Assembly: GCA_963793425.1 (NCBI GenBank)
Contig: CAWCAG010000005.1
Location: 1,056,001 to 1,120,000 of the forward strand
Source: an uncultured cyanobacterium
GTDB taxonomy: Bacteria > Cyanobacteriota > Cyanobacteriia > Cyanobacteriales > CAWCAG01
Length of the DNA: 64,000 bases
Direction of reading: 5' to 3'
Each line of letters starts with the position of its first letter. Within the stretch, counting starts at the first letter, position 1. Under the pieces are notes generated by a model. The model had not been told where the DNA came from, searched no databases, and saw only the letters and a list, made by a program, of their open reading frames with translations. A program made the position numbers and the translations under genes. This document shows, piece after piece, positions 36,774 to 54,537 of this stretch.

Positions 36774-36803
36774 GGTTTTATCCCTCTAGAAGTTAAGTTG
36801 TCT

Positions 36804-38282: not shown

Positions 38283-38676
38283 CTTTCTGCCCCAAACCGG
38301 ACTCTAAAACATCTATTAAAGTATTTTCATCCCAAGGTTTGGGTAAATAACGATGAAGGTTAGCTAATTGTTCAGTTCGTTTAATTGCTTCATCATCAGC
38401 TTGCCCCGTAAGCAGCACTTTAACAATTTCAGGAAAGCGTTGATGGACTTTAATCAGAAATTCATCTCCTTTCATTTCCGGCATCAGCCAATCAGAAACA
38501 ATCATCAAAATTTCGCTACCATCTTCATTCAACTCCTCAATTACTTCCAAAGCCTCTTCCACACTTTCAGCAAACTCATATTGATAACGCTTGCCAAAAT
38601 GATTGGTGAGTTGATCACGCAAACTCGTGAGAATAATCCTTTCATCATCAACACAAAGAATGGTTTTCTTGGGCAT
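38275..38676 (-). CDS. Single-domain response regulator
   Basis: CVDDE, SDWLMP, TG and KPW. Confidence 0.93.
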   Translation of the reverse strand: MPKKTILCVDDERIILTSLRDQLTNHFGKRYQYEFAESVEEALEVIEELNEDGSEILMIVSDWLMPEMKGDEFLIKVHQRFPEIVKVLLTGQADDEAIKRTEQLANLHRYLPKPWDENTLIDVLESGLGQKDE

Positions 38677-38771
38677 AATTTTTTAGTTAGGAATAAACAA
38701 TTTTTCTTTTGTCTGGGCTAAAGCTGACGTGGAATTGCACCATAACTTAGCTATTAGCTATTAGCTAAAGC

Positions 38772-39980
38772 TCATTTCTTTCTCACTAGCCAATAGGTCA
38801 TCATATTCCCTTTACCCTTAATAGCAATTTTCCCCCTCGGCTCCAAAAGGTATTTATCTTTCAATTTCTGGTACGTAGATGTAGTTACTTGAATTTTACC
38901 AGGAATTCCTGATGACTCCATGCGAGAAGCAATATTAACCGCATCTCCCCAAAGATCGTAGCTAAATCTTCTTAATCCAATTACTCCTGCCACAACCTTA
39001 CCTGTATTTATGCCTATGCGAATTTGTAAAGGTGAATTGTCTAAGCCCGGATAGTTACTAACCACCTTACCCATAGCTAAGGCCATTTCTGCGATCGCTT
39101 CTACAGCATTTTCTTGAGGGACTGGTACTCCTCCCACTACCATATATTCATCGCCGATAGTTTTGATTTTTTCCAAACCATGCTTATCTGCTAATTCGTC
39201 AAACTCAGAGAAAATGTTATTGAGTAAATCAACCAATTCAATGGGTTTAACAAAAGCTGCCATGCGAGTAAAATCCACCAAATCGGCAAAAAGGATCGTT
39301 GCTTCATCAAATTGTTCAGCAACAATACTCTGACCCTGCTTTAATTTCTCCGCTATCTTAGCAGGTAAGATATTAAGAATTAAATTATCAGACCTTTGCC
39401 GTGCCAAACGTAAGGCGGTTTCTGCCATTTGTCGTTCAGCAATTCTTTGTTCTAACTTAACGTTAGCTCTTCTTAATTCTTGGGTACGCTCAGCAATTTT
39501 TTCTTCTAAGGAACTATTAAGCTGTTGAAGCTGACTATTAAGCCTTTGTAATTCTGCATTTTGTTCTAGTAACTGTTGATTTTGGCGATAACTGCGTAGG
39601 GCTTCTTTAACTGTTAAAATCAGATCAGTTTCTTCCCAAGGCTTATCTAAATAACGATATAAATTCGCTTTATTAACTACATTACCCACTGCTTTAGCAT
39701 CAGCCTGCCCCGTCAACATAATTTTGATAATTTGCGGATAGAGTTGCTCTGCCTTAATCAAAAATTCATCCCCTTTCATTCCTGGCATAATTTGGTCAGA
39801 AATAATCAGAGCAACTTCAATACCCTCTTCCTTTAATTCCTCAAGAATTTCTAAAGCTTCTTCTGCACTTTCTGCGGTTTCCAATTCATCAACTTCTCTC
39901 AAATTACGCTTTAGCTGTTCTTTGAGACTATCTAAAATGACTTTTTGGTCATCAACGCAGAGGATCGCTAGGTGGCTCAT
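38772..39980 (-). CDS. Receiver-adenylate cyclase (class III)
   Basis: REC plus FADLVDFT, KIKTIGD and YDLWGDAVNIASRMES (K/D ATP-specificity pair). Confidence 0.92.
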   Translation of the reverse strand: MSHLAILCVDDQKVILDSLKEQLKRNLREVDELETAESAEEALEILEELKEEGIEVALIISDQIMPGMKGDEFLIKAEQLYPQIIKIMLTGQADAKAVGNVVNKANLYRYLDKPWEETDLILTVKEALRSYRQNQQLLEQNAELQRLNSQLQQLNSSLEEKIAERTQELRRANVKLEQRIAERQMAETALRLARQRSDNLILNILPAKIAEKLKQGQSIVAEQFDEATILFADLVDFTRMAAFVKPIELVDLLNNIFSEFDELADKHGLEKIKTIGDEYMVVGGVPVPQENAVEAIAEMALAMGKVVSNYPGLDNSPLQIRIGINTGKVVAGVIGLRRFSYDLWGDAVNIASRMESSGIPGKIQVTTSTYQKLKDKYLLEPRGKIAIKGKGNMMTYWLVRKK

Positions 39981-40371
39981 ACATCTCCAATGCTGAGGTC
40001 AGTACGTCAGTTAATTCTGCTTCACTCCAAGGTTTTTGCAAACAATAAAACAGATTAGCATCTTTTTTAGCTCTCTCAACAGCCGACTCATCAGCTTGAC
40101 CCGTCAACATTATATTAGTAACACCAGGAAACTTCTGATGTACTTTAATCAGAAATTCATCACCTTTCATTTCTGGCATTAACCAGTCCGAAACCACAAT
40201 CACAATCTGTAAATTTTCTAAGCTTAATTCTTCAATAATTTCCCATCCTTCCTCTGCACTATCAGCAACCTCGTAGAGATATTTGTTGCCAAATTTCCTT
40301 TTCAGTTGCTCTTTGATGCTTTCAAGAACAACCTCATCATCATCAACACATAGGATTACGGTGTCAGTCAT
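39952..40371 (-). CDS. Single-domain response regulator
   Basis: CVDDD, SDWLMP and KPW. Confidence 0.92.
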   Translation of the reverse strand: MTDTVILCVDDDEVVLESIKEQLKRKFGNKYLYEVADSAEEGWEIIEELSLENLQIVIVVSDWLMPEMKGDEFLIKVHQKFPGVTNIMLTGQADESAVERAKKDANLFYCLQKPWSEAELTDVLTSALEMYEPPSDPLR

Positions 40372-40379
40372 ATTAAGCA

Positions 40380-40407
40380 GGGAGTAGGGAGTAGGGAGTA
40401 GGGAGTA
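40380..40407. repeat. Heptamer tandem repeat (GGGAGTA)4
   Basis: Direct inspection. Confidence 0.9.
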
Positions 40408-40412
40408 GTTGT

Positions 40413-43031
40413 TTAGCTGGGTAGGAAAACACTGAAAGTAGTTTCTCCTGGCTGACTGTTGACTTCGATGCGCCCTTGATGCTTGTCTATAATTTTACGT
40501 ACAATATCTAATCCTAAACCACTTCCTTCCCCAATGGGTTTAGTCGTGAAAAATGGTTCAAAAATTCGCTGTTGTATTTCTGGGGAAATCCCACTACCAG
40601 AATCACTCACTTTGACAACAAGCTCCCCTGCTTGTTCAACCACCCCAATTGTTAACTTTCCCTGACCTTCCATCGCTTGGATCGCATTGTGAATTAAATT
40701 AGTCCACACTTGCACCAACTCATCAGGATAGCACCAGATTAATGGTAGAGATTGAGCATCGTATTCTTGAATAACTTCAACACCTCTTTTAAGTTGGTTG
40801 TAGTACAATTCTAAAACCATCTCAATGTTATCAGTAATCTTGATTTGCTTTTTCTGGCCGCTTTGATCGTAACGGGCATAACTTTTGAGGGCAAAAACTA
40901 TCTTAGAAGCCCTTTCTACTGCGGTAATAATGTTGCGGGAGTTACTCTTTAAACGAACTAAATTATAGGCAAGATCGAGAGTCCAATCCGCCTCAGATTC
41001 TTGTAACAAAGGTAAAAAGCGGTCAATATCTTCCCCAACTCCCATATCTATCAAGGTATCGGCCATACGTCTAGGTTCGTTGATCTCCGTTGCTTGGAGT
41101 TGTGTGGTTAAGGTTCGCTTTAACTGACGTTTTTCTTTGGAACTCATTTGTAGATGGCTGTGCCAAGCATGATCAACTAAGGCAAAGAAGTTAGTTTGCT
41201 GTTGGCTAGAGAGCTTCTCATTGAGTTGAGGTATTTTTTCCAAAGCGGCTTCTAGGGCATTGGCCGTATTGCTAGAAGAAGCTCTAATTGCCCCTAACGG
41301 AGTGTTAATCTCATGGGCCACTCCTGCAATCAATTGTCCTAAAGCAGCCATCTTCTCCGACTGTACAAGTTCATCTTGAGTCGTTTTAAGCTGTTGCAAG
41401 GTAAAGGTTAGTTCCTCATTTTTATGTTGCAGTGCTTCTTCTGCTAGCTTGCGGTAATGAGATTCTACGGCTAAAGCAGCCATATAAGCTAAGTAACTAA
41501 CAAAGTTCTGTTCCCCAATTGTCCAATTCCTTCCTTCTGCCCCGGTATGTTCTAAGCAGACAACCCCTATTTTTTCACCTTTCAGGAAAATAGCGACATC
41601 AAGCATAGAGACAATATTTAGGGGTTTAAAGTAAAAATCATGAAAATCTGTTAATCGAAAGTCTTGATAAACGTCATCAGCAGCAATCACCCTTGCTCGT
41701 TCCAAAGCTTGAAAATAATTTGGGCAATCAGCTAAGGTAATTTTTTGACCTTCACTGTGATGATGGAGGGATTTTTCGTAGAGATCAACACAATCAATAG
41801 CTGATTGATCATCATTAAAAAACCAAACACTAGTCCTTTCCACATCAAGAACACGACTAGCTAATTGAGTAATTTGGGCGATCGCAGCATTAATCTCTCC
41901 TGTATATAAATTCTCGCTGGTAGCTAATTCCACCAATCCTGCTTGCTGTCTCCGCAAGCGGCTTTCTACTTCTTTTAAAGCAGATTCAGCCGCAATTCTT
42001 TCTTCTATTTCCGTTTCCAGGGTATGATTCGCCTTAACTAAATCCGCAGTACGCTCTTGCACCCTTATGTCCAACTCATCATAAGCTTGACGTAAAGCCA
42101 ATTCAGCAGCTTGGCGTTGCAATTCTGCTGCTGCCCTAGCTGCGAAGATCAACATAATTGCTTCGGCAGTTTCGGGATCTGCCAAGGGAGCATTGTTATT
42201 AATACACAAAGTACCAATAATCTCTTGATTACCATCCAACAAAGGTACTCCCAAATAACTTTGGGCCCCCATCGCTTTTAACCCTGTCGCTTCGGGAAAA
42301 AGTTTTTGTACACCTTGAGGATAGTAACAAGGTTTACCTGAGCGAAAAATTGGTTCGCAGGGAGTACCAGCAAGGCCATATTCAAAATTTTCTCCCATTT
42401 CCTTTTCTGCCCAAAAAGCCAGACTTGCTAACTTTTCTGCTTTTGTGTCAACCACTTGGGCAACAAAAGCATAACGAATATCCAAGGCTTTAGCCAAATT
42501 TTCTACTAACGCCAAAAAGAATTCTTCTCCTGTGGCCGAAGCAGTCCCTTCCACAACGTTTTTCAAAATCTGTTCAGCTTTCTGTTGTTCTTTTCTGGCT
42601 GCCTCGCCAATCTCAATCTGCTTTGCTAATTCTCGATTAATCTCTTCTAATTCTTGAGGAGTTTTTAAAGACAGAAATTGAGGCAACAAAGTTGTCATCC
42701 TAAAAGCGGTATAACAAGAAACTAACGCAGTCATTCCTTGTTCTATACCTGATAACCAATAAGCCGGATGCCAAAGAGTCCAAACCTCCAACAAATGCCC
42801 AATGCCACAGAGAATAATAAAAGCGCCAAACAAGTAAAAGATCCTCATAAAAGGAACATCTTGCCGTTTGGAAACAAAATAAATTAGCAATATGGGAATA
42901 GAGAAGTAGGCATAGGCGATAAGTAAATCGCTAACAAGGTGGAGCAAAACCAAAGGAGGCTGCCACAAATAGCAGTTGCCATGGGGCATATACTGACTAG
43001 GGGAGAAAATTTCTTTAAGATAGTCCCACAC
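40413..43031 (-). CDS. Sensor histidine kinase with ETR1-like ethylene-binding TM domain and two GAF domains
   Basis: SDLLIAYAYFSIP and FIILCGIGH helices; two GAF domains; AHEINTP; HATPase. Confidence 0.88.
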   Translation of the reverse strand: MWDYLKEIFSPSQYMPHGNCYLWQPPLVLLHLVSDLLIAYAYFSIPILLIYFVSKRQDVPFMRIFYLFGAFIILCGIGHLLEVWTLWHPAYWLSGIEQGMTALVSCYTAFRMTTLLPQFLSLKTPQELEEINRELAKQIEIGEAARKEQQKAEQILKNVVEGTASATGEEFFLALVENLAKALDIRYAFVAQVVDTKAEKLASLAFWAEKEMGENFEYGLAGTPCEPIFRSGKPCYYPQGVQKLFPEATGLKAMGAQSYLGVPLLDGNQEIIGTLCINNNAPLADPETAEAIMLIFAARAAAELQRQAAELALRQAYDELDIRVQERTADLVKANHTLETEIEERIAAESALKEVESRLRRQQAGLVELATSENLYTGEINAAIAQITQLASRVLDVERTSVWFFNDDQSAIDCVDLYEKSLHHHSEGQKITLADCPNYFQALERARVIAADDVYQDFRLTDFHDFYFKPLNIVSMLDVAIFLKGEKIGVVCLEHTGAEGRNWTIGEQNFVSYLAYMAALAVESHYRKLAEEALQHKNEELTFTLQQLKTTQDELVQSEKMAALGQLIAGVAHEINTPLGAIRASSSNTANALEAALEKIPQLNEKLSSQQQTNFFALVDHAWHSHLQMSSKEKRQLKRTLTTQLQATEINEPRRMADTLIDMGVGEDIDRFLPLLQESEADWTLDLAYNLVRLKSNSRNIITAVERASKIVFALKSYARYDQSGQKKQIKITDNIEMVLELYYNQLKRGVEVIQEYDAQSLPLIWCYPDELVQVWTNLIHNAIQAMEGQGKLTIGVVEQAGELVVKVSDSGSGISPEIQQRIFEPFFTTKPIGEGSGLGLDIVRKIIDKHQGRIEVNSQPGETTFSVFLPS

Positions 43032-43346
43032 GATATTTTTCTATTAAGGAGTAATATTTTTCGAGCTTACGGAGTAGAAACAATCAGCCCTATTTTATTG
43101 AATAGTCTGATTTTAAGAGCTATTTAATGAAGAACGAGTATAGATAGTAACTATTTTTTATTATAGAAGAATCTGTATTTAATAATTTATATTCTGCAAA
43201 AAAGTATTGTGATAGTTGCATCTGCGATCGCCATCAAACCAACTATCCCTTTAAGCCATTTACCTTAAGCAATTTGGCGCTTGTTAACTATTCAATTGTC
43301 CCTTAAATTTATAGTTATAGAAGTCTAGCATTTTGGTACAAACCCA

Positions 43347-43715
43347 ATGGAAACAAAGTTTTATCAAGCTCTGGCATTACTCAATGCCGGACAAACCCAA
43401 CAACAAGTTGCTGTAGAACTTAATATTGGTGTTTCTACCCTCCAACAATGGTTCCAAGATGAGGCTTTTCAACAAGAACAGATAAAGCAACAAAAGTGTC
43501 TTATTTTAGCTTCCATTGATGACTTAGTTACAAAAATGCCCGATTTGACTAGTGAACTTGTCAATATTATTTTGGGTCAAGGTTATTCGATACGGGAAAA
43601 AATAGCTGCCTACAATGCTATTCTAAATGGAGATTTTAATTTACCTCAAATTGAACTTGACTACCTTTTAGTTGAACTTAAAGCTCAAATTCAAGAACAA
43701 GCTGTGTTTAATTGA
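43347..43715 (+). CDS. Helix-turn-helix protein
   Basis: GQTQQQVAVELNIGVSTLQQW HTH pattern. Confidence 0.7.
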   Translation: METKFYQALALLNAGQTQQQVAVELNIGVSTLQQWFQDEAFQQEQIKQQKCLILASIDDLVTKMPDLTSELVNIILGQGYSIREKIAAYNAILNGDFNLPQIELDYLLVELKAQIQEQAVFN

Positions 43716-43802
43716 TATAGAGCGGTTTAGTTAATTGCTAATTGCTAGTGGCTAATGGCTAATCGTGCAAGAGAAGAGGGGGTAGGCAACAGTAGATTCT
43801 TG

Positions 43803-43871
43803 ACTTATTACTTATTACTTATTACTTATTACTTATTACTTATTACTTATTACTTATTACTTATTACTTAT
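43803..43871. repeat. Heptamer tandem repeat (ACTTATT), about 10 copies
   Basis: Direct inspection; perfect units, no spacers. Confidence 0.95.
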
Positions 43872-43918
43872 GAATGGTTGACTACATAGTTGCTCATCCC
43901 AATTAAAGAAGAATGATA

Positions 43919-44614
43919 TCAGACAAGTCCTTCAGCCCGTCGTCGATCTAAAGAAGCTTTAAGGATACGCACATAATCAAGCCTTGCTTCGTCTTTTTGC
44001 TTAATACCTTTATTAGCTGAATGCAAGCGTCGTTTTGCCACTAATTTTGGTAAGGTTAGAGTTTTTAAACCTGACTCTACTGCCCGAACATACCAAGCAG
44101 CAAATTCTCCAGATTTCCATTTAGACTCAAACTCACCGATTTGGAAAAAAGAATCTTTTTTAACTAGCATTGCCGAAGGAATATATCCCGGCATCAATTC
44201 AGAATTACAGTAAATTTTTGCTTTTAATTCTTCTGCCAAATCTGGACTGTGAAACTGTTGCACTTGTCCAAAAACTAAATGAAGTTCAGGATCATTTTTA
44301 AATGCTTCTAGTTGAACTTCTAATTTATCTTCAACCCAAAGATCGTCGGCATCCAGAAAAGCCAAAAAGCTACCTTGGGCTAATTCTATACCATGATTAC
44401 GAGCAGTAGCGCTACCGCCATTATTTTGATAGCAGTATGTTACTTTTGAACCAAAGCTTTTAGCTACTTCTGCTGTTTTATCCGTTGAACCATCATCAAT
44501 AATAATAATTTCAAAAGATGTATAGTTCTGACTTAGTATGCTTTCAACGGCTTCTGCTAAATAGAGATCACTGTTATAGGCAGGAATAATAACACTTACT
44601 AAAGGATTATTCAT
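43919..44614 (-). CDS. Glycosyltransferase family 2
   Basis: VSVIIPAYN, DDGSTD, ARN.G and FLDADD. Confidence 0.93.
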   Translation of the reverse strand: MNNPLVSVIIPAYNSDLYLAEAVESILSQNYTSFEIIIIDDGSTDKTAEVAKSFGSKVTYCYQNNGGSATARNHGIELAQGSFLAFLDADDLWVEDKLEVQLEAFKNDPELHLVFGQVQQFHSPDLAEELKAKIYCNSELMPGYIPSAMLVKKDSFFQIGEFESKWKSGEFAAWYVRAVESGLKTLTLPKLVAKRRLHSANKGIKQKDEARLDYVRILKASLDRRRAEGLV

Positions 44615-44632
44615 TAAAAATACTATTTTCAG

Positions 44633-45385
44633 TTAAAGATTTGATTGAGATTGATATATTTTAAATAATTCTGACAACTGAGGTGCTGTGGTGTTACCAT
44701 TCTTGCGCCTTGGGTCTAAAGATTTCTTCAAAACTTTAATAAAATCAAGGGTGTGTATATTTCTTCCATTGGTCATATTACTGTTATGTTTGCGATAGAG
44801 TAACATCACCTCTTCTAAAACAATCATTGAGACTTTATCTTCCCAGGCTCGCATAAACCAATCAACATCTTCACTATAACGAAGAGATTCATCAAATAGA
44901 CCGATTCTCTCAAATACTGATTTTCTAAAAATAGCACCACCTAAATTAAAAGAAACACCAATATCATATAAAGTTCGATAAATACTAGATTGTTGGCTTT
45001 CAGCATCTATTTGTAGATGTTGAATTTTCCCTTGAACAATTTCTACATGAGAATTTTTAGCCAAACATTCTAATTGACTTTTAAGCTTATTCTCTGGCCA
45101 TAAATCATCAACATCCAGAAAAGTAATTACATTCCCTTGAGCAATTTCTATACCTCGATTACGGGCTGCTGAAGGGCCGCTATTAGCTTGATAAATGTAG
45201 TGAACAACTTCTTGATACTGAGCGGCAATTTTAGCAGTTTGATCCGTTGAGCCATCATCAACAATAATAATTTCTAAAGGTTGATGTCCTTGTTGTTGAA
45301 TATTGGCAATAGCTTCTGCTAAAAATGCTTCCCCGTTGTAAACAGGGATAATTACGCTGACAAAAAACTTATTTAGTTGGCTCAT
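44633..45385 (-). CDS. Glycosyltransferase family 2
   Basis: VSVIIPVYN, DDGSTD, FLDVDD and ED. Confidence 0.93.
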   Translation of the reverse strand: MSQLNKFFVSVIIPVYNGEAFLAEAIANIQQQGHQPLEIIIVDDGSTDQTAKIAAQYQEVVHYIYQANSGPSAARNRGIEIAQGNVITFLDVDDLWPENKLKSQLECLAKNSHVEIVQGKIQHLQIDAESQQSSIYRTLYDIGVSFNLGGAIFRKSVFERIGLFDESLRYSEDVDWFMRAWEDKVSMIVLEEVMLLYRKHNSNMTNGRNIHTLDFIKVLKKSLDPRRKNGNTTAPQLSELFKIYQSQSNL

Positions 45386-45390
45386 TAATT

Positions 45391-46485
45391 TTACTGGCTA
45401 AGAAAATCGAAAATAACTTCAGGTATTTGTTTAATCTCAGTTCCTAAATTAAGATAATAACAAGGAACTTTTTGGGCAGATTCGGTCATGATTTGACAAG
45501 CTTCTTTCCCTGCATTGGGTAGTTGTTTGATAGTACTAGGAACTAAGGCTGATAACCCTGCTACGGAGGAAGTTTTACTTAAACTTGTCTCAACTTTCCC
45601 GGTAACACGAGGAACGAAAATTGCTTTTAAAGGGAAGCCGGAGATAATTTTTTCTGGAAAGTGTTGGTGTAAAAAATAAAGCGCCTTTTCACTATCTAAG
45701 CGATCGCGGTTACTGATGATGGATTTGAGGAAGGGCAACCTGTCAATATCATCGGGCCTTTTCTTGCCAGTGTTATAGATGCTATGAACTTGTGGTGTCG
45801 GTTGGGAGGCAAGCAAAACATAATCATCACTGGCATAAAATAAATCTGAGTTTAAGCAACATAAAGCCGTTGTCGATTTTCCCGAACCACCTTTACCAGC
45901 TAACAAAACTCCACCAGAAGGCAAACCTACAGCCCCAGCATGAACCATTTGTACACCGCGTTTACCTAACCATATATGCAGAATTGTTCGCAAGGGAGAG
46001 CCACTTTCCCAATAAGGGAGCAACTTTGCATCGTTCACCCAATATAAACCCAAGTTGCGTAGGCGAAGCCCACCGTAGGTATCGCTATCCAACATACTTA
46101 AGGTGTTAGCACCCCACTGGAAGGTTGTATGGATGCGTTCATTATTAAATCCTAAAATCTCCCCCCGTTGCTGTAATTGTGCGCCTTGCCAAGGTGGAGG
46201 AGGCATTTTAGTCTTAGTAGAAGCACTATCCCATAAACAGATGGTGAGGTTTGGCTTTGGGGTTGATTGAGTAGCTAGATGGGCAAAAGCAGGAGTCAGA
46301 TACCCAACTAAGGCTTCTCCTGCAAAACACAGTTTGATAGTAAAGTCACCTAAGTTATAAAATCTTTCTATCAGACTGCCCGTAGCAGTTTCTGCTTGTT
46401 GATAAGCAGCATAAACTTCATTGAAAAATTCTAAGGGATTGGCTTTAGCAATTAATTCAGAAGCAGGGACTTGCTCAATATTCAC
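45391..46485 (-). CDS. HPr-kinase-like serine kinase (RiPP/lasso-associated type)
   Basis: VHAGAV, P-loop GKGGSGKST and SDD; GTG at 46485 is the likely start. Confidence 0.8.
   Translation of the reverse strand: MNIEQVPASELIAKANPLEFFNEVYAAYQQAETATGSLIERFYNLGDFTIKLCFAGEALVGYLTPAFAHLATQSTPKPNLTICLWDSASTKTKMPPPPWQGAQLQQRGEILGFNNERIHTTFQWGANTLSMLDSDTYGGLRLRNLGLYWVNDAKLLPYWESGSPLRTILHIWLGKRGVQMVHAGAVGLPSGGVLLAGKGGSGKSTTALCCLNSDLFYASDDYVLLASQPTPQVHSIYNTGKKRPDDIDRLPFLKSIISNRDRLDSEKALYFLHQHFPEKIISGFPLKAIFVPRVTGKVETSLSKTSSVAGLSALVPSTIKQLPNAGKEACQIMTESAQKVPCYYLNLGTEIKQIPEVIFDFLSQ
46060..46080. mobile_element. 21-nt SDR5-like element inserted in a HIP1 site inside the kinase gene
   Basis: GCG|TAGGCGAAGCCCACCGTAGGT|ATCGC; removing the insert restores GCGATCGC and keeps the frame. 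Confidence 0.85.
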
Positions 46486-46518
46486 GCTAGTAGTTATTTT
46501 AAAGGTAGCAAAATCAAG

Positions 46519-46570
46519 TTTGTCGGTTGAATCAAATGGGCAAAGTGACTCCACTTCCCAACCGAACAAA
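46519..46570 (-). terminator. Intergenic stem-loop 3' of the PqqD/RRE gene
   Basis: Minus strand TTTGTTCGGTTG...CAACCGACAAA with an inner AAGTG/CACTT stem. Confidence 0.6.
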
Positions 46571-46585
46571 AGTTAGTCAAGAAGC

Positions 46586-47032
46586 TCAAACTTTCTCCTC
46601 TAGTTTGGCATTAGGCCAACCCATTTCGTCAACCTCGTGAATAGGATCTAAACCTAACAATTCTTCCATGTCAGTGTACTTGCCTAACTTGGGTTCTTCA
46701 AAAGGAAGTTTTTCTCCTGGAGTTTCTTCATTTTGATTAATACTGCTAGCTTCACTATTGGTATTAGGAACAATAATTCCTTCTTGCTGTAACTGTTGGA
46801 GTAAAGTGTTGACAGAATTGGCAATAGTTTCGGAATTAGCCTCATAGCGCTGGCTAAGATTACTAATCAATTCACTTTGGGACATACCTTGTTCAATGCC
46901 TGCCCAAACATCAGCACCCGCATTCACCAAACTGTAGTAATCTCCCTTTTGAAGGTTGACAATTACTACTTCACCATCAATAGTTTCTTGGACTACACCA
47001 GGAGTATTCAGTCTAAAACGCACTGCTGTCAT
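46586..47032 (-). CDS. PqqD-family RiPP recognition element with a C-terminal leader/core-like extension
   Basis: ETIDGEVVIVNL..GDYYSL..AGADVW..LQQEGII (RRE), a linker, then FEEPKLGKYTDMEELLGLDPIHEVDEMGWP; TAAGGAG RBS. Confidence 0.88.
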   Translation of the reverse strand: MTAVRFRLNTPGVVQETIDGEVVIVNLQKGDYYSLVNAGADVWAGIEQGMSQSELISNLSQRYEANSETIANSVNTLLQQLQQEGIIVPNTNSEASSINQNEETPGEKLPFEEPKLGKYTDMEELLGLDPIHEVDEMGWPNAKLEEKV

Positions 47033-47251
47033 GGATTAGCTCCTTATAAGTTAATTTTAGTTTAAGGTTTAATTAATTCTTGCCTAAAACCACTGGAGTC
47101 CAGAATAGTCTACCTTAAGAGAGAAGACAAGAGACATAAGTTTAATTAGCAAACTTTTAATCAACTCTTCACAAAAACTTTATTTCTGCCTTAACAAAAA
47201 AATTACTTGTATTCTTTCCCTAACAATAGGGTTCCCTTCTATTACTCCAAT

Positions 47252-48361
47252 CTAGGAGATGATTTTTTTCGCTCCCCGAACCACAGTATGATAGGGAAGT
47301 TGCCATAAGCTATTTAAGCCCCAAACTCTTTGTAAATATTTAGGGAAACCGAGAATACCTGATTCAGATTGATTACGTTTAGCTAACCTTAAATATTGTA
47401 AATATCTCTTGGTTAAGCTTCCTATAAGCGGAAGAGGGTTGCTATTGACGAGACGATACTCTGTGCTATCAAACCAAGAGACGGGAAGAGATTGTATTTC
47501 TTTTAGCTGTGTGGGAGGTATTGTCTTAGGAAAGACCGTTTCTATGAAAGTTAGCAGATTTTTTAAAGGGATAGTCAATTTATATTTTTGTGCATCTTCT
47601 AATAATAGATTCCAGTTAATCGCTTCTCGATGTTGCTCAATAATCAACTTACCATCAGCTAACCAACAAGGTTGCAAATTCGGGTAGGCTAAGGCAATTT
47701 GTTGACAAATATACAGTAGTTGCTGGGTAGGAGTTAAAATCCGAGTTGATAAGTCATTAATATTTATAGTGACTGTTGGTAGTGAAGGATTCTCTACCAA
47801 GGAATTACTCCAAATTTGCCAGTTGAGATGCAGTAATTGTCCTTCCTGATTCCACAAACCAATTTTAGGATACAAAGCAATAAATTCTTTTGTTAAATCG
47901 GCTTTTGCTTGCCAACCTAACTTTTTTAGTACATCTATAGCAGCAAAAGCATTTTGAGGGGCAACAAAAATATCAAGATGATTAATGGGACGCAAACCAA
48001 TATTTTGATAATAATTAACTAAAGCTCCATCTTTTAATAAAACAGTTTCGAGATTAACAGCAGCAGCAAGGCTATTTAAGATAGTAGTAATTTCTTTAAT
48101 AAAAATTTGGTTATTATACCAGTTGCGGCGATAAACACCTTTAAGTCTAACCATCTCAGCATCTTCTACTTGATAGCGAGATAAGTTGTTATAGAGCAAT
48201 GGTAATAAATGATATGATTCTGAATTAAGGTCTTCGATATCAACCTTTCCTCTCCAAGTTTGCCAAGCATTAAGAGCTATTTTTCTCTCTTCAAGGGATG
48301 ATTGCAAAAGCAATTGTTGCTCTTTAGTCGGTAGGTTATCCTGGGGATAATCTGCACTCAT
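47252..48361 (-). CDS. Nucleotidyltransferase family protein (NTP_transf_5-like) with degenerate motifs
   Basis: LLKDGAL..YQNIGLRPINHLDIFV and LHLNW; similar layout to 48383..49618. Confidence 0.75.
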   Translation of the reverse strand: MSADYPQDNLPTKEQQLLLQSSLEERKIALNAWQTWRGKVDIEDLNSESYHLLPLLYNNLSRYQVEDAEMVRLKGVYRRNWYNNQIFIKEITTILNSLAAAVNLETVLLKDGALVNYYQNIGLRPINHLDIFVAPQNAFAAIDVLKKLGWQAKADLTKEFIALYPKIGLWNQEGQLLHLNWQIWSNSLVENPSLPTVTININDLSTRILTPTQQLLYICQQIALAYPNLQPCWLADGKLIIEQHREAINWNLLLEDAQKYKLTIPLKNLLTFIETVFPKTIPPTQLKEIQSLPVSWFDSTEYRLVNSNPLPLIGSLTKRYLQYLRLAKRNQSESGILGFPKYLQRVWGLNSLWQLPYHTVVRGAKKIIS

Positions 48362-48382
48362 GTTAAGACCTCACAAATATCT

Positions 48383-49618
48383 ATGATTCAAACAATAGCC
48401 TCAAAAGAAGCTCGAAATCCCTCAATAATAGCAGGAGATTGTCGGGAAATTGATTTACTTCTCTGTTGTAGCAGAACCTGTTTAGAAGCACCAGTTAAAG
48501 AACAAATAAAAGCTTTAGTCAAACAAGATATTGACTGGTCTAGATTAATTACTATAGCTGAACAACATGGAGTTAAACCTCTTTTATATCAAAGCCTTAA
48601 TCAAGTTTGTGCAAATGCTATTCCGCCAAATATTTTAAATCAACTCAAAAAAGATTTTCGTACTAACGCAGTACGCAACCTTTATTTAACTAGAGAGTTG
48701 CTTAAATTGCTCAAATTATTTACTAGTCATGATATACCTGTTCTTTGTATAAAAGGTCCTGCATTAGCAACTTTAGCCTATGGGGATCTTTCTTTAAGGC
48801 AATTTAGCGATTTAGATATTTTAATTTATGAAAAAGACATTATTAAAAGTAAAGATTTAATACTCTCCCAAGGATTTAAAATGCGCTTTCATGTTATTGA
48901 ATTAACTGAACAAGAAGAAAGTGCTTTTATGGAGTCCCAAAACATTCATAAGTTTGTGCGAGAAGGTGCTTATGAAATGGAATATCAAGGGGGAAAAGTA
49001 GTATTAGAGATACACTGGGAAGTAATTCCTAATTATTTTTCTTTCTCTCTCCAAGCTGATTATTTATGGGCTAATGCTCAGTCTGTTTCTCTACTTGGTC
49101 AAAAAGTATCTCACCTTTGTGTAGAAGACACTTTATTATTACTCTGCGGCCATGGTACGAAAGATTGTTGGGATAAATTGAACCGAGTTTGCGATATTGC
49201 GGAACTACTGCACAACCATCCCCAATTAAACTGGAAAAAAGTCAGAACAGAGGCGAAAAAAAGAGGAGGAGATCGCTTACTACTCCACAGTTTGTTATTA
49301 ACTCACAATCTTTTAGGGATAAGTTTACCTGAAGCTATTTGGCATGAAATTAATCAGGATCAGACAATTAGTGCGATCGCAAATCAAGCTCAAGAATGGC
49401 TTTTCTGTTCCTCTGCTAAACGACCTAAACCATTACAACAGTTTTTGTTTATTTTGAAAACCAAGGAACACCTACGGGATAAACTTAGCTATGCTCTCAG
49501 TATTGCCACAACCCCAACTCTTTCTGACTGGGCTTTATTGCCTCAATCTGACTTACCTCCTGTTTACTACTATTTACTGCGATCTTGGCGTATTTTAAGG
49601 AATACATTGCAGAGATAG
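48383..49618 (+). CDS. Nucleotidyltransferase family protein (NTP_transf_5-like)
   Basis: IKGPALA..YGDLSLRQFSDLDIL, EIHW and HGTKDCW. Confidence 0.88.
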   Translation: MIQTIASKEARNPSIIAGDCREIDLLLCCSRTCLEAPVKEQIKALVKQDIDWSRLITIAEQHGVKPLLYQSLNQVCANAIPPNILNQLKKDFRTNAVRNLYLTRELLKLLKLFTSHDIPVLCIKGPALATLAYGDLSLRQFSDLDILIYEKDIIKSKDLILSQGFKMRFHVIELTEQEESAFMESQNIHKFVREGAYEMEYQGGKVVLEIHWEVIPNYFSFSLQADYLWANAQSVSLLGQKVSHLCVEDTLLLLCGHGTKDCWDKLNRVCDIAELLHNHPQLNWKKVRTEAKKRGGDRLLLHSLLLTHNLLGISLPEAIWHEINQDQTISAIANQAQEWLFCSSAKRPKPLQQFLFILKTKEHLRDKLSYALSIATTPTLSDWALLPQSDLPPVYYYLLRSWRILRNTLQR

Positions 49619-50018
49619 CTTAGCTGTTCGGGTAACAGGGAGGGCATTTAGTAAATAATGCCCTACTCCAAATCTCTTCAGCCTTTTTCTATGCCTACTG
49701 CTGGCATATCTTTGATTCGTGCATCCACTTTGAAACGCTCTAGCAATACGTGGAACATACGTGTCTGTTCCTCAACACTAAGTTGAGCAATCTGCTCAGC
49801 CAATGGCAGTGAAAGAGAACAGGTATTAGACCTCAATTCCCCATATGTAGATTTGCCTTGACTAAAGAGGCTTCGGCACAGAGTAAGTAAATTGTGTAAA
49901 GCTCCACTGGTGAGAGTATAGAGTCGTTGTCCAATAGTTTACTGTTGGTTTGCAGCAAAACTCAACCTTTCAGAATATTTGCTTAGTCTGTAATTGATTT
50001 GATGAAAACCCCATTTTG

Positions 50019-50060
50019 GTATATTTTGTATCTATTTTAATAATCTTCTTTGATTATCAT
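50019..50060 (+). promoter_or_regulatory. Putative NtcA-activated promoter of glnN
   Basis: GTA-N8-ATC (imperfect NtcA box), then exactly 22 nt, then a TATCAT -10 element. Confidence 0.6.
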
Positions 50061-50087
50061 GGTTCGGTAAAACCTTAATAAAAATAT

Positions 50088-52262
50088 ATGAGTGGAAATG
50101 AAGCCCGTCTCCAGGCAGTTCATCAGATCACTAATCAAGAGATGATGCCGCCTAACCCTCCTGAACCCTTAGAAAAGATTTGGGCAGAGAACGTCTTTGA
50201 TTTGAGTAAAATGCAGATGAGTCTCCCCAAAGCTGTCTTCAAATCGATTAAAAAAACCATCGCTACCGGTGAAAAGCTCGACCATTCCATTGCCGATGCC
50301 GTTGCCAATGCCATGAAAGACTGGGCAACATCCAAAGGGGCCCTTTATTACGCCCACGTCTTTTACCCCATGACAAACTTAACCGCAGAAAAGCACGACG
50401 GCTTTATCTCGGTACAAGGAGACGGCAAGGCTATTTCGGAATTTTCCGGTAAATTGTTGGTGCAAGGAGAGCCAGATGGCTCTTCATTCCCCAATGGTGG
50501 TATCCGAGGGACTTCTGAAGCACGGGGCTATACAGCTTGGGATGTTACCAGTCCTGCTTACATCATGGAAACCGACCACGGTTCCACATTCTGCATTCCT
50601 ACGGTTTTTGTCTCTTGGACAGGGGAAGCACTAGATAAAAAAGTGCCACTTTTGCGCTCCATCGCCGCTATGGATAAAGCCGCCAAGAAAGTTCTCAAGC
50701 TATTGGGACACGAAGATGTTGCCCGTGTCAACTCTAGCTGTGGCGCTGAGCAAGAATATTTCTTAGTTGATGCTAATTTTGCTAGGAAACGTCCTGACCT
50801 TCTTGTCGCAGGAAGAACCCTTTTTGGTAAAGCTCCTGCCAAAGGTCAAGAGTTTGACGACCATTACTTTGGGGCAATTCCCGATCGAGTTTTGGTTTTC
50901 ATGCAAGATGTTGAAGAAACCATGTACAAACTCGGTATCCCGGCAAAAACCCGACATAACGAAGTTGCCCCCGGTCAATTTGAAATCGCACCCTTCTTTG
51001 AAGCAGCAAACGTGGCGAGTGATCATCAACAACTCACCATGACCATTCTCAAGCGCACTGCCAAAAAGCACGGCTTTGTTTGCTTACTCCATGAAAAACC
51101 CTTTGCTGGTATCAATGGCTCTGGTAAGCACGTTAACTGGTCTGTGGGCAATGCAACCCAAGGAAACTTACTTGATCCAGGAGATTCTCCCCATGAAAAT
51201 GCTCAGTTCTTGGTTTTCTGTGGTGCAGTCATTCGAGGTGTTCACAAATATGCACCTCTCATGCGTGCTGTCATTGCTAGCAGTAGCAACGACCACCGGT
51301 TAGGAGCAAATGAAGCACCTCCTGCAATTATGTCTGTATATTTGGGGACACAATTAGAAGAAGTCTTCGAGCAGATTAAAAATGGCTCGGTTAGCGGCTC
51401 CAAGAAAAAAGGTGTAATTGATCTGGGGATTGATGTTTTGCCTCCCCTCACCAAAGATGCTGGGGACAGAAACCGCACCTCTCCCTTTGCCTTCACCGGT
51501 AATCGCTTTGAATTCCGTGCTGTAGGTTCAAATCAATCAGTATCAGGACCCTTAGTTGCTCTCAACACCATCTTGGCAGAGTCTCTTGATTGGGTTGGTA
51601 ATCGCTTAGAAAGTGAATTATCTAAGGAAGAGGATCTCAATACTGCTATCGTCACAGTCCTTAAAGAAGTGATGGAAGACCATGGTGCAGTTATTTTTGG
51701 CGGCGATGGTTATTCTGAAGAATGGCACAAAATGGCCGTTGAAGAGCGTGGTTTACCCAACTTACCTACCACAGCAGATGCTTTGCCAGCCCTCAAAGCA
51801 GAATATATTGAAGACTTGTTTAAGAAAACAGGAGTTTTGACACCTGTTGAGCTTGACAGCCGCTTTGAAGTTTATGCAGAGCAGTATATTCTTTCTATTG
51901 AAGTTGAAGCCAAGCTGGTAGTTAACATGGCGAAGACAGTTATTTATCCCACAGCAGTGGCATATTTATCAGAGCTTTCTTCTACCATTGCTAGTTTGAC
52001 TGGTTTGGGAATTGACCTGGAAAAGGATAGTGCCAAAAAAGTGGCAAGCCTAACCAATTCTCTGGTTGAAGCAACTGGCAAGCTGAGTGCAGCCATGGAA
52101 AAACATGACTTCCCCTCAACTGAAGAGCATATGAACTATTGCGCCCAGACAATTCGCTCTTTAATGGATGAAGTTCGTGGCTATGCTGATGCCCTAGAAG
52201 GTGAAGTTGCTGATAGCTTCTGGCCATTGCCAACTTACCAAGAAATGCTATTCATCAAGTAA
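50088..52262 (+). CDS. glnN: Glutamine synthetase type III
   Basis: 724 aa; [45 protein letters not shown] and WPLPTY. Confidence 0.96.
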
Positions 52263-52423
52263 GAGTAAACCCACTCATTCTATCCTCACTTTCTCCTAAA
52301 GGTTAAAACTCAAAAAGTTGAAACTAAAAGGAGAAAAAGGACAGGGGCATCTTTTCATTGAACATTGAACATTTATCATTAAACATTGAAGAATTTTTGT
52401 TCCATAAACGTTTTAAACAAATA

Positions 52424-53365
52424 CTATTCTAAATTAGCTAAATTTATTTCTGATTTTTCGCCGTTGTGGATAGTTTTACTGCCTTTTAATTTAGATAATA
52501 ATTCCTCAGTTAATTTCGCAAAAGCTTTAGAACCTACAGAGTTAGGGCTAGTTAAAACAACAGGTCTAAAGGCATCCACCGCTTTGGCTACGTTGACATC
52601 CATAGGAATGCGAACATCAAAAATTTGGCTGGGGCTGAAGTCTTCAGAAACTCTCCGCATCACCTGGCGATAGTAGCGCCCAACTAAACGACCTCCGGAA
52701 AGAATAAAAACAATACCCAATAGTTTTAAATCAAAAGGATTATCTTGACTGTGATTTTCTTTTAGTTTGGCAACACGTCTTTCTAATAGTTGAATGCCCA
52801 CCAAAGATAAAGGCTCAGGACGGGCAGGAAGTAAATAAAAGTCGCTAGCAGCAATACCACTTCGGGTTAAAAGATTATAGCCAGGGGCGCAGTCCATAAT
52901 AATAAAATCATACTGCTTAATTACTGGTTCGAGGATTTTTCTAATTAAATTACTTTCTAAACTATTCCAAACTTGATTGAAATTAAGCCCATTTTGAGAA
53001 CTAGCTTTTTCATGGAGCATTTCCGAGACTAAATATTCATCATAAAGTTCAATGTCCCCCGGCAACAAATCCATTCCTTTGACACTACAAATATAGGGAC
53101 AAATCAGATCCTGGGTAGAAAACTTTTTTTTAGTATTCGGTTTAATATATTGAGCAATTAAATTATTTAAAGTGCGCCTTTCTTTCCTCACTTTGGCAAA
53201 ATCATGGGGCGACATTAAGCTTAAGGTAGCGCTGATTTGCGAATCTAGGTCAACTACTAAGACTCGCTTGTTATGATTTCTGGCTAAACAAGTGGCTAAA
53301 TTAACCGTTAAAGTCGTCTTCCCGACACCACCTTTCATATTAACCGTACTAATGACAAATCCCAT
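52424..53365 (-). CDS. ParA family ATPase
   Basis: KGGVGKTT, DLDSQ and DCAPG. Confidence 0.92.
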   Translation of the reverse strand: MGFVISTVNMKGGVGKTTLTVNLATCLARNHNKRVLVVDLDSQISATLSLMSPHDFAKVRKERRTLNNLIAQYIKPNTKKKFSTQDLICPYICSVKGMDLLPGDIELYDEYLVSEMLHEKASSQNGLNFNQVWNSLESNLIRKILEPVIKQYDFIIMDCAPGYNLLTRSGIAASDFYLLPARPEPLSLVGIQLLERRVAKLKENHSQDNPFDLKLLGIVFILSGGRLVGRYYRQVMRRVSEDFSPSQIFDVRIPMDVNVAKAVDAFRPVVLTSPNSVGSKAFAKLTEELLSKLKGSKTIHNGEKSEINLANLE

Positions 53366-53748
53366 GGGCAGAATCCAATCCCTTTAAATAAAAGCGTTAG
53401 CCAACATTATAGATTAGCCAAAATCCCATTTTAGTCTTTCGTTGTTGAGGAACTCACCCTTCTTTAGGGGAAGAACAAGATTTGAAACTATCCTTCATAA
53501 ACGCAAGGGCTACAGTATACTCAGTTCTGCTAAAATTCAGGGGTCGAAGTCATATCCTATAATTATTATAACCTTTGGGGTCGCCCTTGACGGGAATTAA
53601 AGGTAGGGCAGGCGACCCGATGTAATCAGTTTTCAACTCTCCAAGTTAATGAAAACGGGTCGCCTCTACAGAGAATGTTGGTTTTCAGGCTAAGGATGTT
53701 TTTACAAATATGAGATGCACCCGGTGATTTCGTAGTGGATAAGTTAAT

Positions 53749-54537
53749 TCAGTAACGAATTAGTAGAATGGGGTGTACCAAAAGAAGACATCGTTTTAGC
53801 CTATTATGCTCCTTATAAACGCCCATATACTGGATTTGCTGTTGATTGATATTAAGCTTTGGAGCCATTTTTGTGGCATGACCTCTGGAATTAAACAGAA
53901 TACCAATTAAATCAATTTGAGTGCGATCGCTCTTTTTCAATTGTTGTATTCTACCTTCTAATATACCAACACCAATAACAGATAAGGGTTCGGGTTTAGC
54001 AGGGACAAGATAGAAGTCGCTGGCGAGGATGCCGCTACGGGTGAGTAAATGATCTCCTGGGGGAAAGTCTAGCAAGATGAAATCATATTCATCTATTACT
54101 GGTTTGAGAATTTTCTTGATTAACTCATCTTCAAATTTTTGCCAATTACGTTCAAATTCTTGCAGATTGCCTTGAGATTGGGAATAAATAACTGCTGCTA
54201 TGTAAAAGTCATTATAAAGTTCAATATCTCCTGGTAACAAATCAAAACCAGGAATCTGACAAATCTCGCGCTTGATGACTTCTTGGGTAGAGAGATGATT
54301 TTGATTAATCGGTTGAATAATTTGGTTAATTAAGGTTCTTAAGGTGAATTTCTCTTTCTTTAATTTGGTGAAATATACAGGCGGTAACAGACTTAGGGTG
54401 GCGTTGATTTGCATATCTAAATCTACTACCAAGACTTTTTTATTAAAATCTTTAGCTAAACAGGTGGCTAAGTTAACCGTAACGGTAGTTTTGCCTACGC
54501 CGCCTTTCATATTAACGATAGAAACTACATATCCCAT
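53749..54537 (-). pseudogene. Second ParA family ATPase, C-terminally truncated
   Basis: KGGVGKTT and DFPPG; similarity to the neighbouring ParA ends near 53855 and the tail is the antisense of the xisI fragment. Confidence 0.75.
53751..53849 (+). pseudogene. XisI-family 3' fragment
   Basis: Manual translation SNELVEWGVPKEDIVLAYYAPYKRPYTGFAVD*; no start codon. Confidence 0.8.

Follow-up and report, generated by a model that had tools for sequence, protein, structure and literature searches.

The window analysed here, a stretch of 64,000 nucleotides from an uncultured cyanobacterium (assembly GCA_963793425.1, contig CAWCAG010000005.1, positions 1,056,001 to 1,120,000), encodes a small protein (46586..47032, minus strand; positions are those of the window) that we refer to as the RRE-tail protein. 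As judged from its sequence and those of its homologues, it is one polypeptide made of a lasso-B1-type RRE, the recognition element of RiPPs (peptides that are made by the ribosome and modified after translation), its own F111xxP114xL116 recognition motif, and a near-invariant 23-residue peptide, D121-K143. Its gene lies in a cassette with genes for an HprK-like kinase, NTP_transf_5 proteins, and family 2 glycosyltransferases (GT2). The fusion of an RRE to its own recognition motif and tail appears to be new, and the tailoring set of RRE, HprK-like kinase, and NTP_transf_5 is known. We tentatively favor, with somewhat less than even confidence, the reading that the cassette is a self-leadered variant of the phosphorylating and glycosylating tailoring set of linear polyphosphorylated peptides (LPP), paeninodin, and pseudomycoidin, and that the RRE protein itself serves as substrate or carrier.

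The open reading frame (ORF) starts with an ATG, 6 nt behind the Shine-Dalgarno sequence AAGGAG, and encodes 148 aa followed by a stop; all of its parts lie on the minus strand. Residues 1-88 (46769..47032) are a PqqD/RRE winged-helix domain of lasso-B1 type according to Pfam, AlphaFold2 (AF2), Foldseek, and profile comparison, and PF05402 (PqqD) matches residues 21-87 with 54.2 bits against a gathering threshold of 23.4. Residues 89-107 (46712..46768) form a variable linker, disordered by its predicted local distance difference test (pLDDT) scores and rich in S, T, N, E, and A. In translation, residues 90-107 read NTNSEASSINQNEETPGE, and residues 108-148 then read KLPFEEPKL...EEKV. Column counts and AF2 delimit a leader-like recognition segment at residues 108-120 (46673..46711; K108..F111xxP114xL116xK118-Y119-T120). 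The hyperconserved distal tail, delimited by alignments A1 and A2 and the 80 related loci described below, covers residues 121-143 (46604..46672) and reads D121-M-E-E-L-L-x-L-D129-P-I-H132-E-V-D-E-x-G138-W139-P140..K143. The 41-residue C-terminal extension has no family assignment. A preliminary description of this DNA had placed an RRE, a linker, and a tail in this one ORF, and the translation and the PF05402 match confirm it.

The AF2 model of the protein was built on a 117-row alignment and has a mean pLDDT of 79.6. Strands at residues 13-18, 21-26, and 31-35 are followed by helices at 37-47, 52-62, and 67-83, all at pLDDT 90-96, which is the winged-helix order of three strands and three helices for PqqD/RRE domains. 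Confidence drops to about 52 in the linker, with some segments below 50. It rises again to a mean of 87 over residues 111-120, where short strands are predicted at 109-110 and 117-119; the preliminary description had expected structure prediction to show FEEPKL adding a strand to the RRE sheet. The distal tail, at pLDDT 56-59 with a short helix at 122-127, is not packed on the RRE in the model.

How well is the tail conserved? A word-indexed search with the RRE-tail protein yielded 319 candidates, 307 of which were homologues. The 120 homologues listed are mostly 144-162 aa long, with three of 174-202 aa, and their BLAST query coverage is 93-100%. Alignment A1 comprises the window protein and 27 homologues (28 sequences), and 19 of its 28 invariant columns fall in residues 108-140 (K108-P140). 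In alignment A2 (117 sequences), the window protein is joined by 116 of the 120 listed homologues; the other four, the near-identical P0001 and three that carry long extensions, were omitted. Here, 13 of 17 invariant columns fall in the tail. Measured by these columns, the tail is conserved more strongly than the RRE itself, and the overall pattern goes well past what chance would give. Neither A1 nor A2 shows a majority residue anywhere in the linker. Across a set of 300 non-identical sequences used for column counts the linker's length has a median of 22 and a range of 3-27, and its share of Ser plus Thr is 19%, versus 11% in the RRE.

The 300-sequence set was pre-filtered for DP[IV][HY], so D129, P130, and H132 are invariant in it by construction; their invariance rests on A1, A2, and the motif of the 80 related loci. 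The remaining positions can be counted directly. Residue 111 is F in 273 sequences and Y in 17; P114 is found in 284 and L116 in 272; D121 and G138 are each present in 300 of 300, W139 in 299, and P140 in 297. Residue 119 is Y (270), F (24), or H (5). Residue 120 is mostly T (263), otherwise S (15) or A (11), with A, N, R, or D in some lineages.

We then turned to related loci. A scan of one genome per species gave 116 pattern matches, of which 81 were confirmed and 80 kept. These 80 loci span Cyanobacteria, Chloroflexota, Acidobacteriota, Myxococcota, Desulfobacterota-type lineages, an anammox planctomycete, Bacteroidota, Actinomycetota, Alpha- and Gammaproteobacteria, and several candidate phyla. 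The motif [Y/F/H]-x-D-[M/L]-x-[D/E]-h-L-x-L-D-P-[I/V]-H-[E/D]-V ... G-W-P is kept in all of them except L079, in which the tail region is masked. A variable linker and a conserved FxxPxL..YxDM..DPIH..GWP tail had been predicted for the homologues, and A1, A2, the 80 loci, and the 300 sequences bear this out in full. The conservation acts on the protein and not on the DNA, because synonymous and third-position differences predominate: over codons K118-P140 in 34 loci (782 codons), 360 differences are synonymous versus 106 non-synonymous, and third positions differ at 430 of 782, compared with 145 of 1564 for positions 1 and 2. Within cyanobacteria the tail is patchy, occurring in 20 of 401 genomes (the window's own included) and 16 of 156 genera. 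An open frame of 149-228 aa is present at all 21 cyanobacterial places with the tail, and a stop falls inside the match at two.

A phmmer search with the tail alone (42 residues) against 1.84 billion cluster representatives gave 1351 matches at E<=0.001, with a dozen phyla or more represented. In the 150 tail matches that are listed, full-length proteins (about 140-230 aa) have the tail at the C terminus. The top match, P0121, was rejected as a 1290-aa repeat artefact. Short tail-only matches of 43-80 aa also occur; the ten that were looked up are all single-contig records, and the cluster of one of these short matches also held an unrelated 378-aa protein. P0225, a candidate stand-alone tail peptide, was discarded because it is a 149-aa member truncated at an internal Met. 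A protein atlas search with residues 105-148 yielded nothing usable, and a comparison of the tail with PDB sequences returned only a designed repeat protein at E 0.19.

A few members depart from the common form. A pair of paralogous cassettes, both of them with a fused tail, is found in L057 (1438-4416 and 7917-13199) and at two places of contig C1 of genome G230. In L077 a copy of the RRE-tail gene is frameshifted into two overlapping ORFs. Small cyanobacterial genomes of 1.7-2.5 Mb (L098-L109; family code f35) carry a divergent cassette with the order ORF, kinase-like protein (382 aa in L101, about 500 aa elsewhere), a 156-157-aa PqqD-plus-tail protein, and GT2. Only the C-terminal half of this kinase-like protein matches the kinase profile (E ~1e-30). 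The tail in these genomes reads ..EYNDAQELLLADPIHE[VI]K.ETGW[TS]P.., with N at residue 120 and a degenerate FxxPxL.

The RRE itself points to the lasso peptides. With the A2 profile, the matches are TbiB1 (3.3e-16), PbaB1 (1.9e-12), TfuB1 (4.9e-6), and LppB (0.005). The best PDB matches in Foldseek are the lasso B1-leader complexes of TbiB1 (5V1V, 5V1U) and TfuB1 (6JX3), and 5v1v_A is matched at E 7.5e-6 with a TM score of 0.90 normalised to the target. The best NCBIfam models are the two lasso B1 (PqqD) chaperone families NF033536 and NF033530, both under their cut-offs (lasso_PqqD_Bac, 56.2 bits vs 80; the other, 35.8 vs 70), and TIGR03859 (PqqD) is not reached either (17 bits vs 46). Profile and fold place the RRE in the lasso-B1 type, the partners of which bear (Y/W)xxPxL. 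The spacing F-3-P-2-L in the tail equals that of the lasso and LPP recognition motif [Y/W]xxPx[L/V], as given in the accessible part of PMC13381572. FEEPKL had been proposed as a lasso-type (Y/W/F)xxPxL leader motif, and both this spacing and the closeness of the RRE to TbiB1 and PbaB1 support that assignment. The solved RRE:leader complexes (TbiB1-TbiA, 5V1V/5V1U; TfuB1, 6JX3; PbaB1, 9X90) thus share fold and motif spacing with the RRE-tail protein and contain its closest RRE relatives. They differ in being two chains, whereas in this protein a linker of about 20 residues holds the partner, and in having Tyr or Trp as the motif aromatic where this family mostly has Phe (273 of 300).

Does the FxxPxL segment dock in the peptide-binding cleft of its own RRE? 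We modelled the RRE (residues 1-92) and the tail (105-148) as two chains with alignments and three controls. The scores were 0.35, 0.35, and 0.32, versus 0.00, 0.00, and 0.01 for the controls, which the tool rates as 'weak support'. The runs share at least 82% of their contacts, and the partner pLDDT is at least 52. Of 157 solved complexes, 116 reach the pass mark, as do 2 of 215 mismatched pairs; at scores of 0.60 or less, those that pass are 18 of the 157 solved complexes and both of the passing mismatches. Since lasso B1:leader complexes are already solved, the pass may reflect likeness or memory. Docking in cis is therefore weakly supported by the models. The RRE-tail column pairs ranked highest by mutual information with average product correction (MI/APC), D31-E123 and D31-G127, were rejected as a docking signal because they follow clades.

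If the protein carries its own leader, is there also a separate substrate? We found no plausible small ORF with [YWF]xxPx[LVIFAM] outside known genes in window positions 38000-54000. The cassette regions of the 80 loci supplied 866 small ORFs for comparison; no family of these reached beyond 7 loci, the one that did reach 7 consisted of GT2 fragments, and the remaining families were common only to close relatives. The earlier observation that no separate precursor ORF is apparent therefore extends from the window to the related loci. The genome is 98.6% complete and encodes a single PqqD domain. It contains no PF13471 B2 peptidase and no cyclase-type match to NF033561, the one cyclase model tried, and neither a B2 peptidase nor a lasso cyclase is among the cassette neighbours. 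On this gene content, the cassette is not a lasso system.

The partner genes are tightly linked to the RRE-tail gene. RRE-tail, kinase, and the two GT2 genes form a tight operon with RRE-tail at its head, four same-strand genes separated by gaps of 16, 5, and 18 nt. The 392-aa P-loop kinase-like gene (45391..46569, minus strand) starts 16 nt past the RRE-tail stop. It is followed after 5 nt by a 250-aa GT2 (44633..45385, minus strand; PF00535, 118 bits) and after a further 18 nt by a second GT2 of 231 aa (43919..44614, minus strand; PF00535, 122 bits), which has orthologues in related loci at E values down to 1e-101. Upstream of the RRE-tail gene by 219 nt lies a 369-aa NTP_transf_5 paralogue (47252..48361, minus strand; PF14907, 94 bits). 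A divergent 411-aa NTP_transf_5 gene with an intact DLD motif (48383..49618, plus strand; PF14907, 214 bits) comes next, the annotated starts of the two being 21 nt apart. Across the 80 loci, a kinase homologue is detected by profile in 78, directly downstream of the RRE-tail gene in 74 of these; GT2 genes are present in 76, and NTP_transf_5 genes in 60, many of the rest being cut contigs. Moreover, single ORFs match both kinase and GT2 in L048 (8415-10262, 615 aa), L067 (8399-10810, 803 aa), L051 (5034-8660), and L053 (11272-13989). L048 is the only one of the four that was domain-checked, and Pfam places GT2 at residues 371-496 of its ORF. These combined matches suggest fusions and a functional link between phosphorylation and glycosylation.

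The 392-aa protein is, by its model, an HprK/PEPCK-fold P-loop kinase-like protein with a Walker A motif and an upstream His, and kinase activity is predicted. Walker A (GKGGSGKST), H210, G230, K231, and K295 are invariant in 53 sequences, and the AF2 model has a pLDDT of 90.6. In structural comparison (VIA), residues 43-392 match ATP-dependent phosphoenolpyruvate carboxykinase (PEPCK) with Z 17.5 and a root-mean-square deviation (rmsd) of 4.5 over 301 residues, and residues 205-392 match the HprK/P catalytic domain with Z 13.9 and rmsd 2.4 over 130 aligned residues. Searches of PDB sequences with the kinase and the NTP_transf_5 gene gave nothing useful. In the 48383..49618 type of NTP_transf_5, the DxD is kept in 27 of 27 sequences. 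In the 47252..48361 gene the corresponding position reads HLD; the first Asp of this type is often lost in other cyanobacterial loci with two copies, and DxD is kept in single-copy lineages. The two paralogues may therefore be an active/inactive pair. Weaker kinase-like paralogues (E 1e-10 to 1e-21, 290-370 aa; for example L110-L112) are common in cyanobacteria, with some match in 55 of 401 genomes. By eye, some of them adjoin ABC-exporter-like or methyltransferase-like ORFs, and their loci may be sister systems.

The closest known counterpart is the LPP system of Bacillota; this comparison and the others below draw on the accessible parts of the cited reports. The LPP core comprises an RRE, an HprK-like kinase, and an NTP transferase (Popov et al., Nat Commun 2026, PMC13381572), and Supplementary file 2 of that report lists the domain NTP_transf_5. 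There, the discrete RRE LppB binds the YxxPxV.. of LppA, LppK polyphosphorylates Ser3 of LppA, and an SpI-type peptidase frees the core; the precursor motif is YxxPxVLxHQxIxFETxxS with the phosphorylated Ser (PMC13381572). LPP and the present cassette have in common the trio of a lasso-B1-descended RRE, HprK-like kinase, and NTP_transf_5, as well as a [Y/W/F]xxPx[L/V] motif, glycosyltransferase surroundings, a patchy distribution, and no lasso cyclase. The differences are equally clear. LppA is separate, whereas in this family one protein unites the RRE with the recognition motif and the presumed substrate. The LPP core includes an SpI-type peptidase and an MsbA-type exporter, neither of which is in this cassette, and it is this cassette that has GT2 genes in its conserved core. 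The region past the motif is hypervariable in LPP but invariant here, and the conserved Ser acceptor of LPP has no equivalent. LPP is described from Bacillota only, whereas this cassette occurs in many phyla. Finally, LppB matches the A2 profile only at E 0.005, against 3e-16 for TbiB1.

Paeninodin (PadeK) and pseudomycoidin (PsmK/PsmN) likewise pair an HprK-family kinase with an NTP transferase on an RRE-bound peptide, adding phosphate and then hexose (PMC6993621). PsmK phosphorylates the C-terminal Ser, and the addition of one or two hexoses to this phosphate depends on PsmN, whose catalytic residues are D134 and D136 (PMC6993621); we liken NTP_transf_5 to PsmN by description. Unlike those systems, neither the cassette nor the genome here has a precursor gene, a B2 peptidase, or a cyclase by the one model tried, and the RRE-tail protein ends in a variable ...KLEEKV rather than in the acceptor Ser. 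The precursor of type II spliceotides, RhaA, also has a Y-protein-like (RRE-like) element built in, one that in other cases comes as a separate protein (PMC11414181). It differs in that its enzyme is a radical SAM splicease, its Y-like helix in the leader activates that enzyme, and no complete RRE binding a motif in cis is described in the accessible part of the report (PMC11414181).

Under the reading that we favor, FxxPxL would occupy the protein's own RRE cleft, as the model weakly suggests, with the disordered linker closed as a loop and the distal tail left free. By gene linkage and precedent, the resulting RRE:leader unit would be recognised by the co-encoded enzymes: the HprK/PEPCK-fold kinase would phosphorylate the RRE-tail protein, the active NTP_transf_5, as a PsmN/LppN relative, would put a sugar on the phosphate, and the GT2s would extend it. 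A Pfam scan of 40 neighbours from 7 loci found no peptidase or transporter, and neither an SpI-type leader peptidase nor an MsbA-type exporter was present among these neighbours or among the window ORFs from 34857 to 57891. We infer from the lack of a leader peptidase and exporter in the cassette that nothing is cut off or exported, and that the RRE-tail protein may be a stoichiometric, single-use substrate or carrier rather than a catalytic chaperone. The same trio with conserved GT2s, the absence of a peptidase, exporter, and separate precursor, and the motif in cis make a self-leadered substrate, phosphorylated and then glycosylated, the most economical explanation. T/S120 is the best candidate acceptor in most lineages, although it is not universal.

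Several observations weigh against this explanation. None of the Ser, Thr, or Tyr residues is universal: the picocyanobacterial variant has N at residue 120, and L059 (H-A) and L060 (H-D) lack a hydroxyl at both residues 119 and 120. The linker fares no better as an acceptor site, because 13 of 300 linkers have neither Ser nor Thr. RiPP cores are usually variable. The hyperconserved part of this protein is the distal tail and not FxxPxL, which is degenerate in actinobacterial, alphaproteobacterial, and picocyanobacterial members, and so the invariance of the distal tail would be no less expected of a docking or interaction motif. Where acceptor choice was described for LPP, LppK took only Ser (PMC13381572). 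The kinase stays under all curated HprK cut-offs (TIGR00679, 17.3 vs 240; TIGR04355 (HprK_rel_B), 27.4 vs 200; PF07475, 16.5 vs 33.3), and its whole-length fold match is PEPCK. The docking score lies only in the weak band. Charge covariation between E84 and K118 is pronounced in raw counts (261, 18, 4, and 17; Fisher p 9e-15), but a phylogeny-aware independent-pairs test (treekit) found 6 pairs, about 2 of them in the same direction, with a median p of 0.5. Of the cis docking put forward in the preliminary description, the two-chain signal (0.35 vs 0.01) stands, weakly, and the covariation does not.

What else could the tail be doing? One answer, which we think unlikely but hold in serious regard, is that the protein is an unmodified adaptor whose tail plugs into the kinase, NTP_transf_5, or GT2 and assembles them into a complex, while the real substrate is a different molecule (for example, a sugar, a lipid-linked glycan, or a protein encoded elsewhere). 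A distal tail that outconserves both the RRE and FxxPxL is what an interface with conserved enzymes would look like, and such an adaptor would need no universal hydroxyl. The kinase-plus-GT2 matches within single ORFs hint at multi-enzyme assembly, the cassettes sit among further GT2, GT4, and tetratricopeptide repeat (TPR)-GT genes, with an Amj flippase homologue adjoining L048, and AF2 leaves residues 121-148 unpacked at pLDDT 56-59. However, an adaptor gives no account of why the RRE and its cognate FxxPxL are kept together in most lineages, and all characterised relatives of the RRE/kinase/NTP_transf_5 trio act on an RRE-bound peptide, as far as the accessible parts of PMC13381572 and PMC6993621 go. 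A further possibility, which we rate no higher than the adaptor and no lower, goes beyond the favored reading: the protein could be a self-presenting glycan carrier, in which RiPP machinery has been turned to protein-primed phosphoglycosylation and a phosphate on the tail primes an oligo- or polysaccharide built by the GT2s.

Alternatively, the tail could be a scaffold for a small molecule or cofactor, comparable to PqqA, MftA, or pearlin, in which invariant residues (for example D121, D129, H132, and W139) are converted and the product is excised, leaving the rest of the protein as a disposable carrier. PqqA/PqqD and MftA/MftB each pair a PqqD-family chaperone with a short, very conserved peptide, the two being encoded by separate genes, and in the mycofactocin system the product is decorated by a GT2, MftF. 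Cofactor precursors typically show a short peptide that stays near-invariant from phylum to phylum, both GT2s here match the MftF model, albeit under its cut-off (E 1.6e-22 and 7.2e-18), and many cyanobacterial loci include a short-chain dehydrogenase/reductase (SDR) and an SMP-30/gluconolactonase-like gene. But those systems have a radical SAM partner and separate genes, where this cassette has a fusion and no such partner: no radical SAM maturase (PqqE, MftC), other oxidative maturase, or conserved peptidase was found among the Pfam-scanned neighbours (the 40 from 7 loci and those in the window). The SDR and SMP-30 genes are also absent from the window's own cluster. We regard a scaffold as improbable. 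Least probable of all, in our estimate, is an autoinhibitory pseudo-leader, in which the cis FxxPxL latches the RRE cleft until displaced by an unlinked precursor and the tail is regulatory. A weak docking score and a linker of 3 to 27 residues suit a displaceable latch, and precursors can be encoded away from their clusters. Yet the 80 loci contain no conserved small ORF, the genome has one PqqD domain and no lasso enzymes, and a latch could do without an invariant distal motif of 23 residues.

Why would a self-leadered RRE matter? RREs are usually viewed as catalytic adaptors that hand separate precursors to enzymes, and genome mining seeks a small precursor gene next to them. If the favored reading is true, RRE, recognition sequence, and substrate can be one polypeptide, which would explain 'orphan' operons of PqqD, kinase, and nucleotidyltransferase that lack a precursor. 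The family is large, with 1351 clusters at 50% identity in many phyla, and includes small marine-sized cyanobacterial genomes and a mobilizable plasmid. The chemistry of phosphate followed by sugars has so far come from only two peptide systems. Should the RRE-tail protein be the end product, it would represent a new kind of bacterial protein glycosylation; as a glycan carrier, it would be a bacterial 'glycogenin-like' or proteophosphoglycan-like module, a 15-kDa cytoplasmic protein found in many phyla and borne on a plasmid. If the tail is a docking motif only, it would still be a compact, very conserved peptide tag that recruits three enzyme families.

We found neither the tail motif nor the fused architecture in the searchable literature, a scope that excludes the PDF supplements of PMC7470986 (Figs S6, S7, on 'novel architectures') and PMC12710340, which may show such proteins. 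The preliminary description mentioned RRE/YxxP fusions noted in surveys of RREs. We could not confirm this: in their accessible parts, the RRE-Finder paper (PMC7470986) mentions only fusions of RREs to enzymes, and its 2025 follow-up (PMC12710340) mentions unexplained long PF05402 proteins, reporting that 21% of PF05402-only proteins are larger than a discrete RRE and carry no other annotation.

The surroundings of the cassette vary. Extra genes in the related loci include the SDR and SMP-30-like pair, GT4, TPR-GT, methyltransferase, and an Amj homologue. In the cultured strain Crinalium epipsammum PCC 9333, the cassette (NC_019735.1, 5896-11857, within locus L113, 1-13351) is carried on plasmid pCRI9333.04, a 44-kb mobilizable (MOBP) plasmid. 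It adjoins a group II intron there, and its genes run in the order PqqD-tail, nucleotidyltransferase, 'HPr kinase', FkbM methyltransferase, and GT-A. This plasmid-borne copy hints at horizontal spread.

In the window, the flanks of the cassette encode signalling proteins, a type III glutamine synthetase, ParA-like ATPases, and IleRS, but neither a protease nor an exporter. For 43900-48400, no RNA data set was listed, and the four DNA data sets that were listed stem from a single study. An Rfam scan of 43000-50200 gave no match, and a consensus scan for promoters and terminators gave nothing reliable above the shuffled expectation. Just downstream of the last GT2 lie a perfect heptamer array of ACTTATT (43803-43871, 9.9 copies) and a shorter array of TAATGGC (43732-43763, 4.6 copies); the former gives rise to a spurious 44-aa 'LITYYLL' ORF at 43755-43889. 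A signalling array on the minus strand (34857-43031) adjoins the cassette. It encodes an 872-aa ethylene-receptor-like (ETR1_N) GAF histidine kinase, two single-domain response regulators, a fusion of a receiver to an adenylate/guanylate cyclase, and two receiver-histidine-kinase hybrids.

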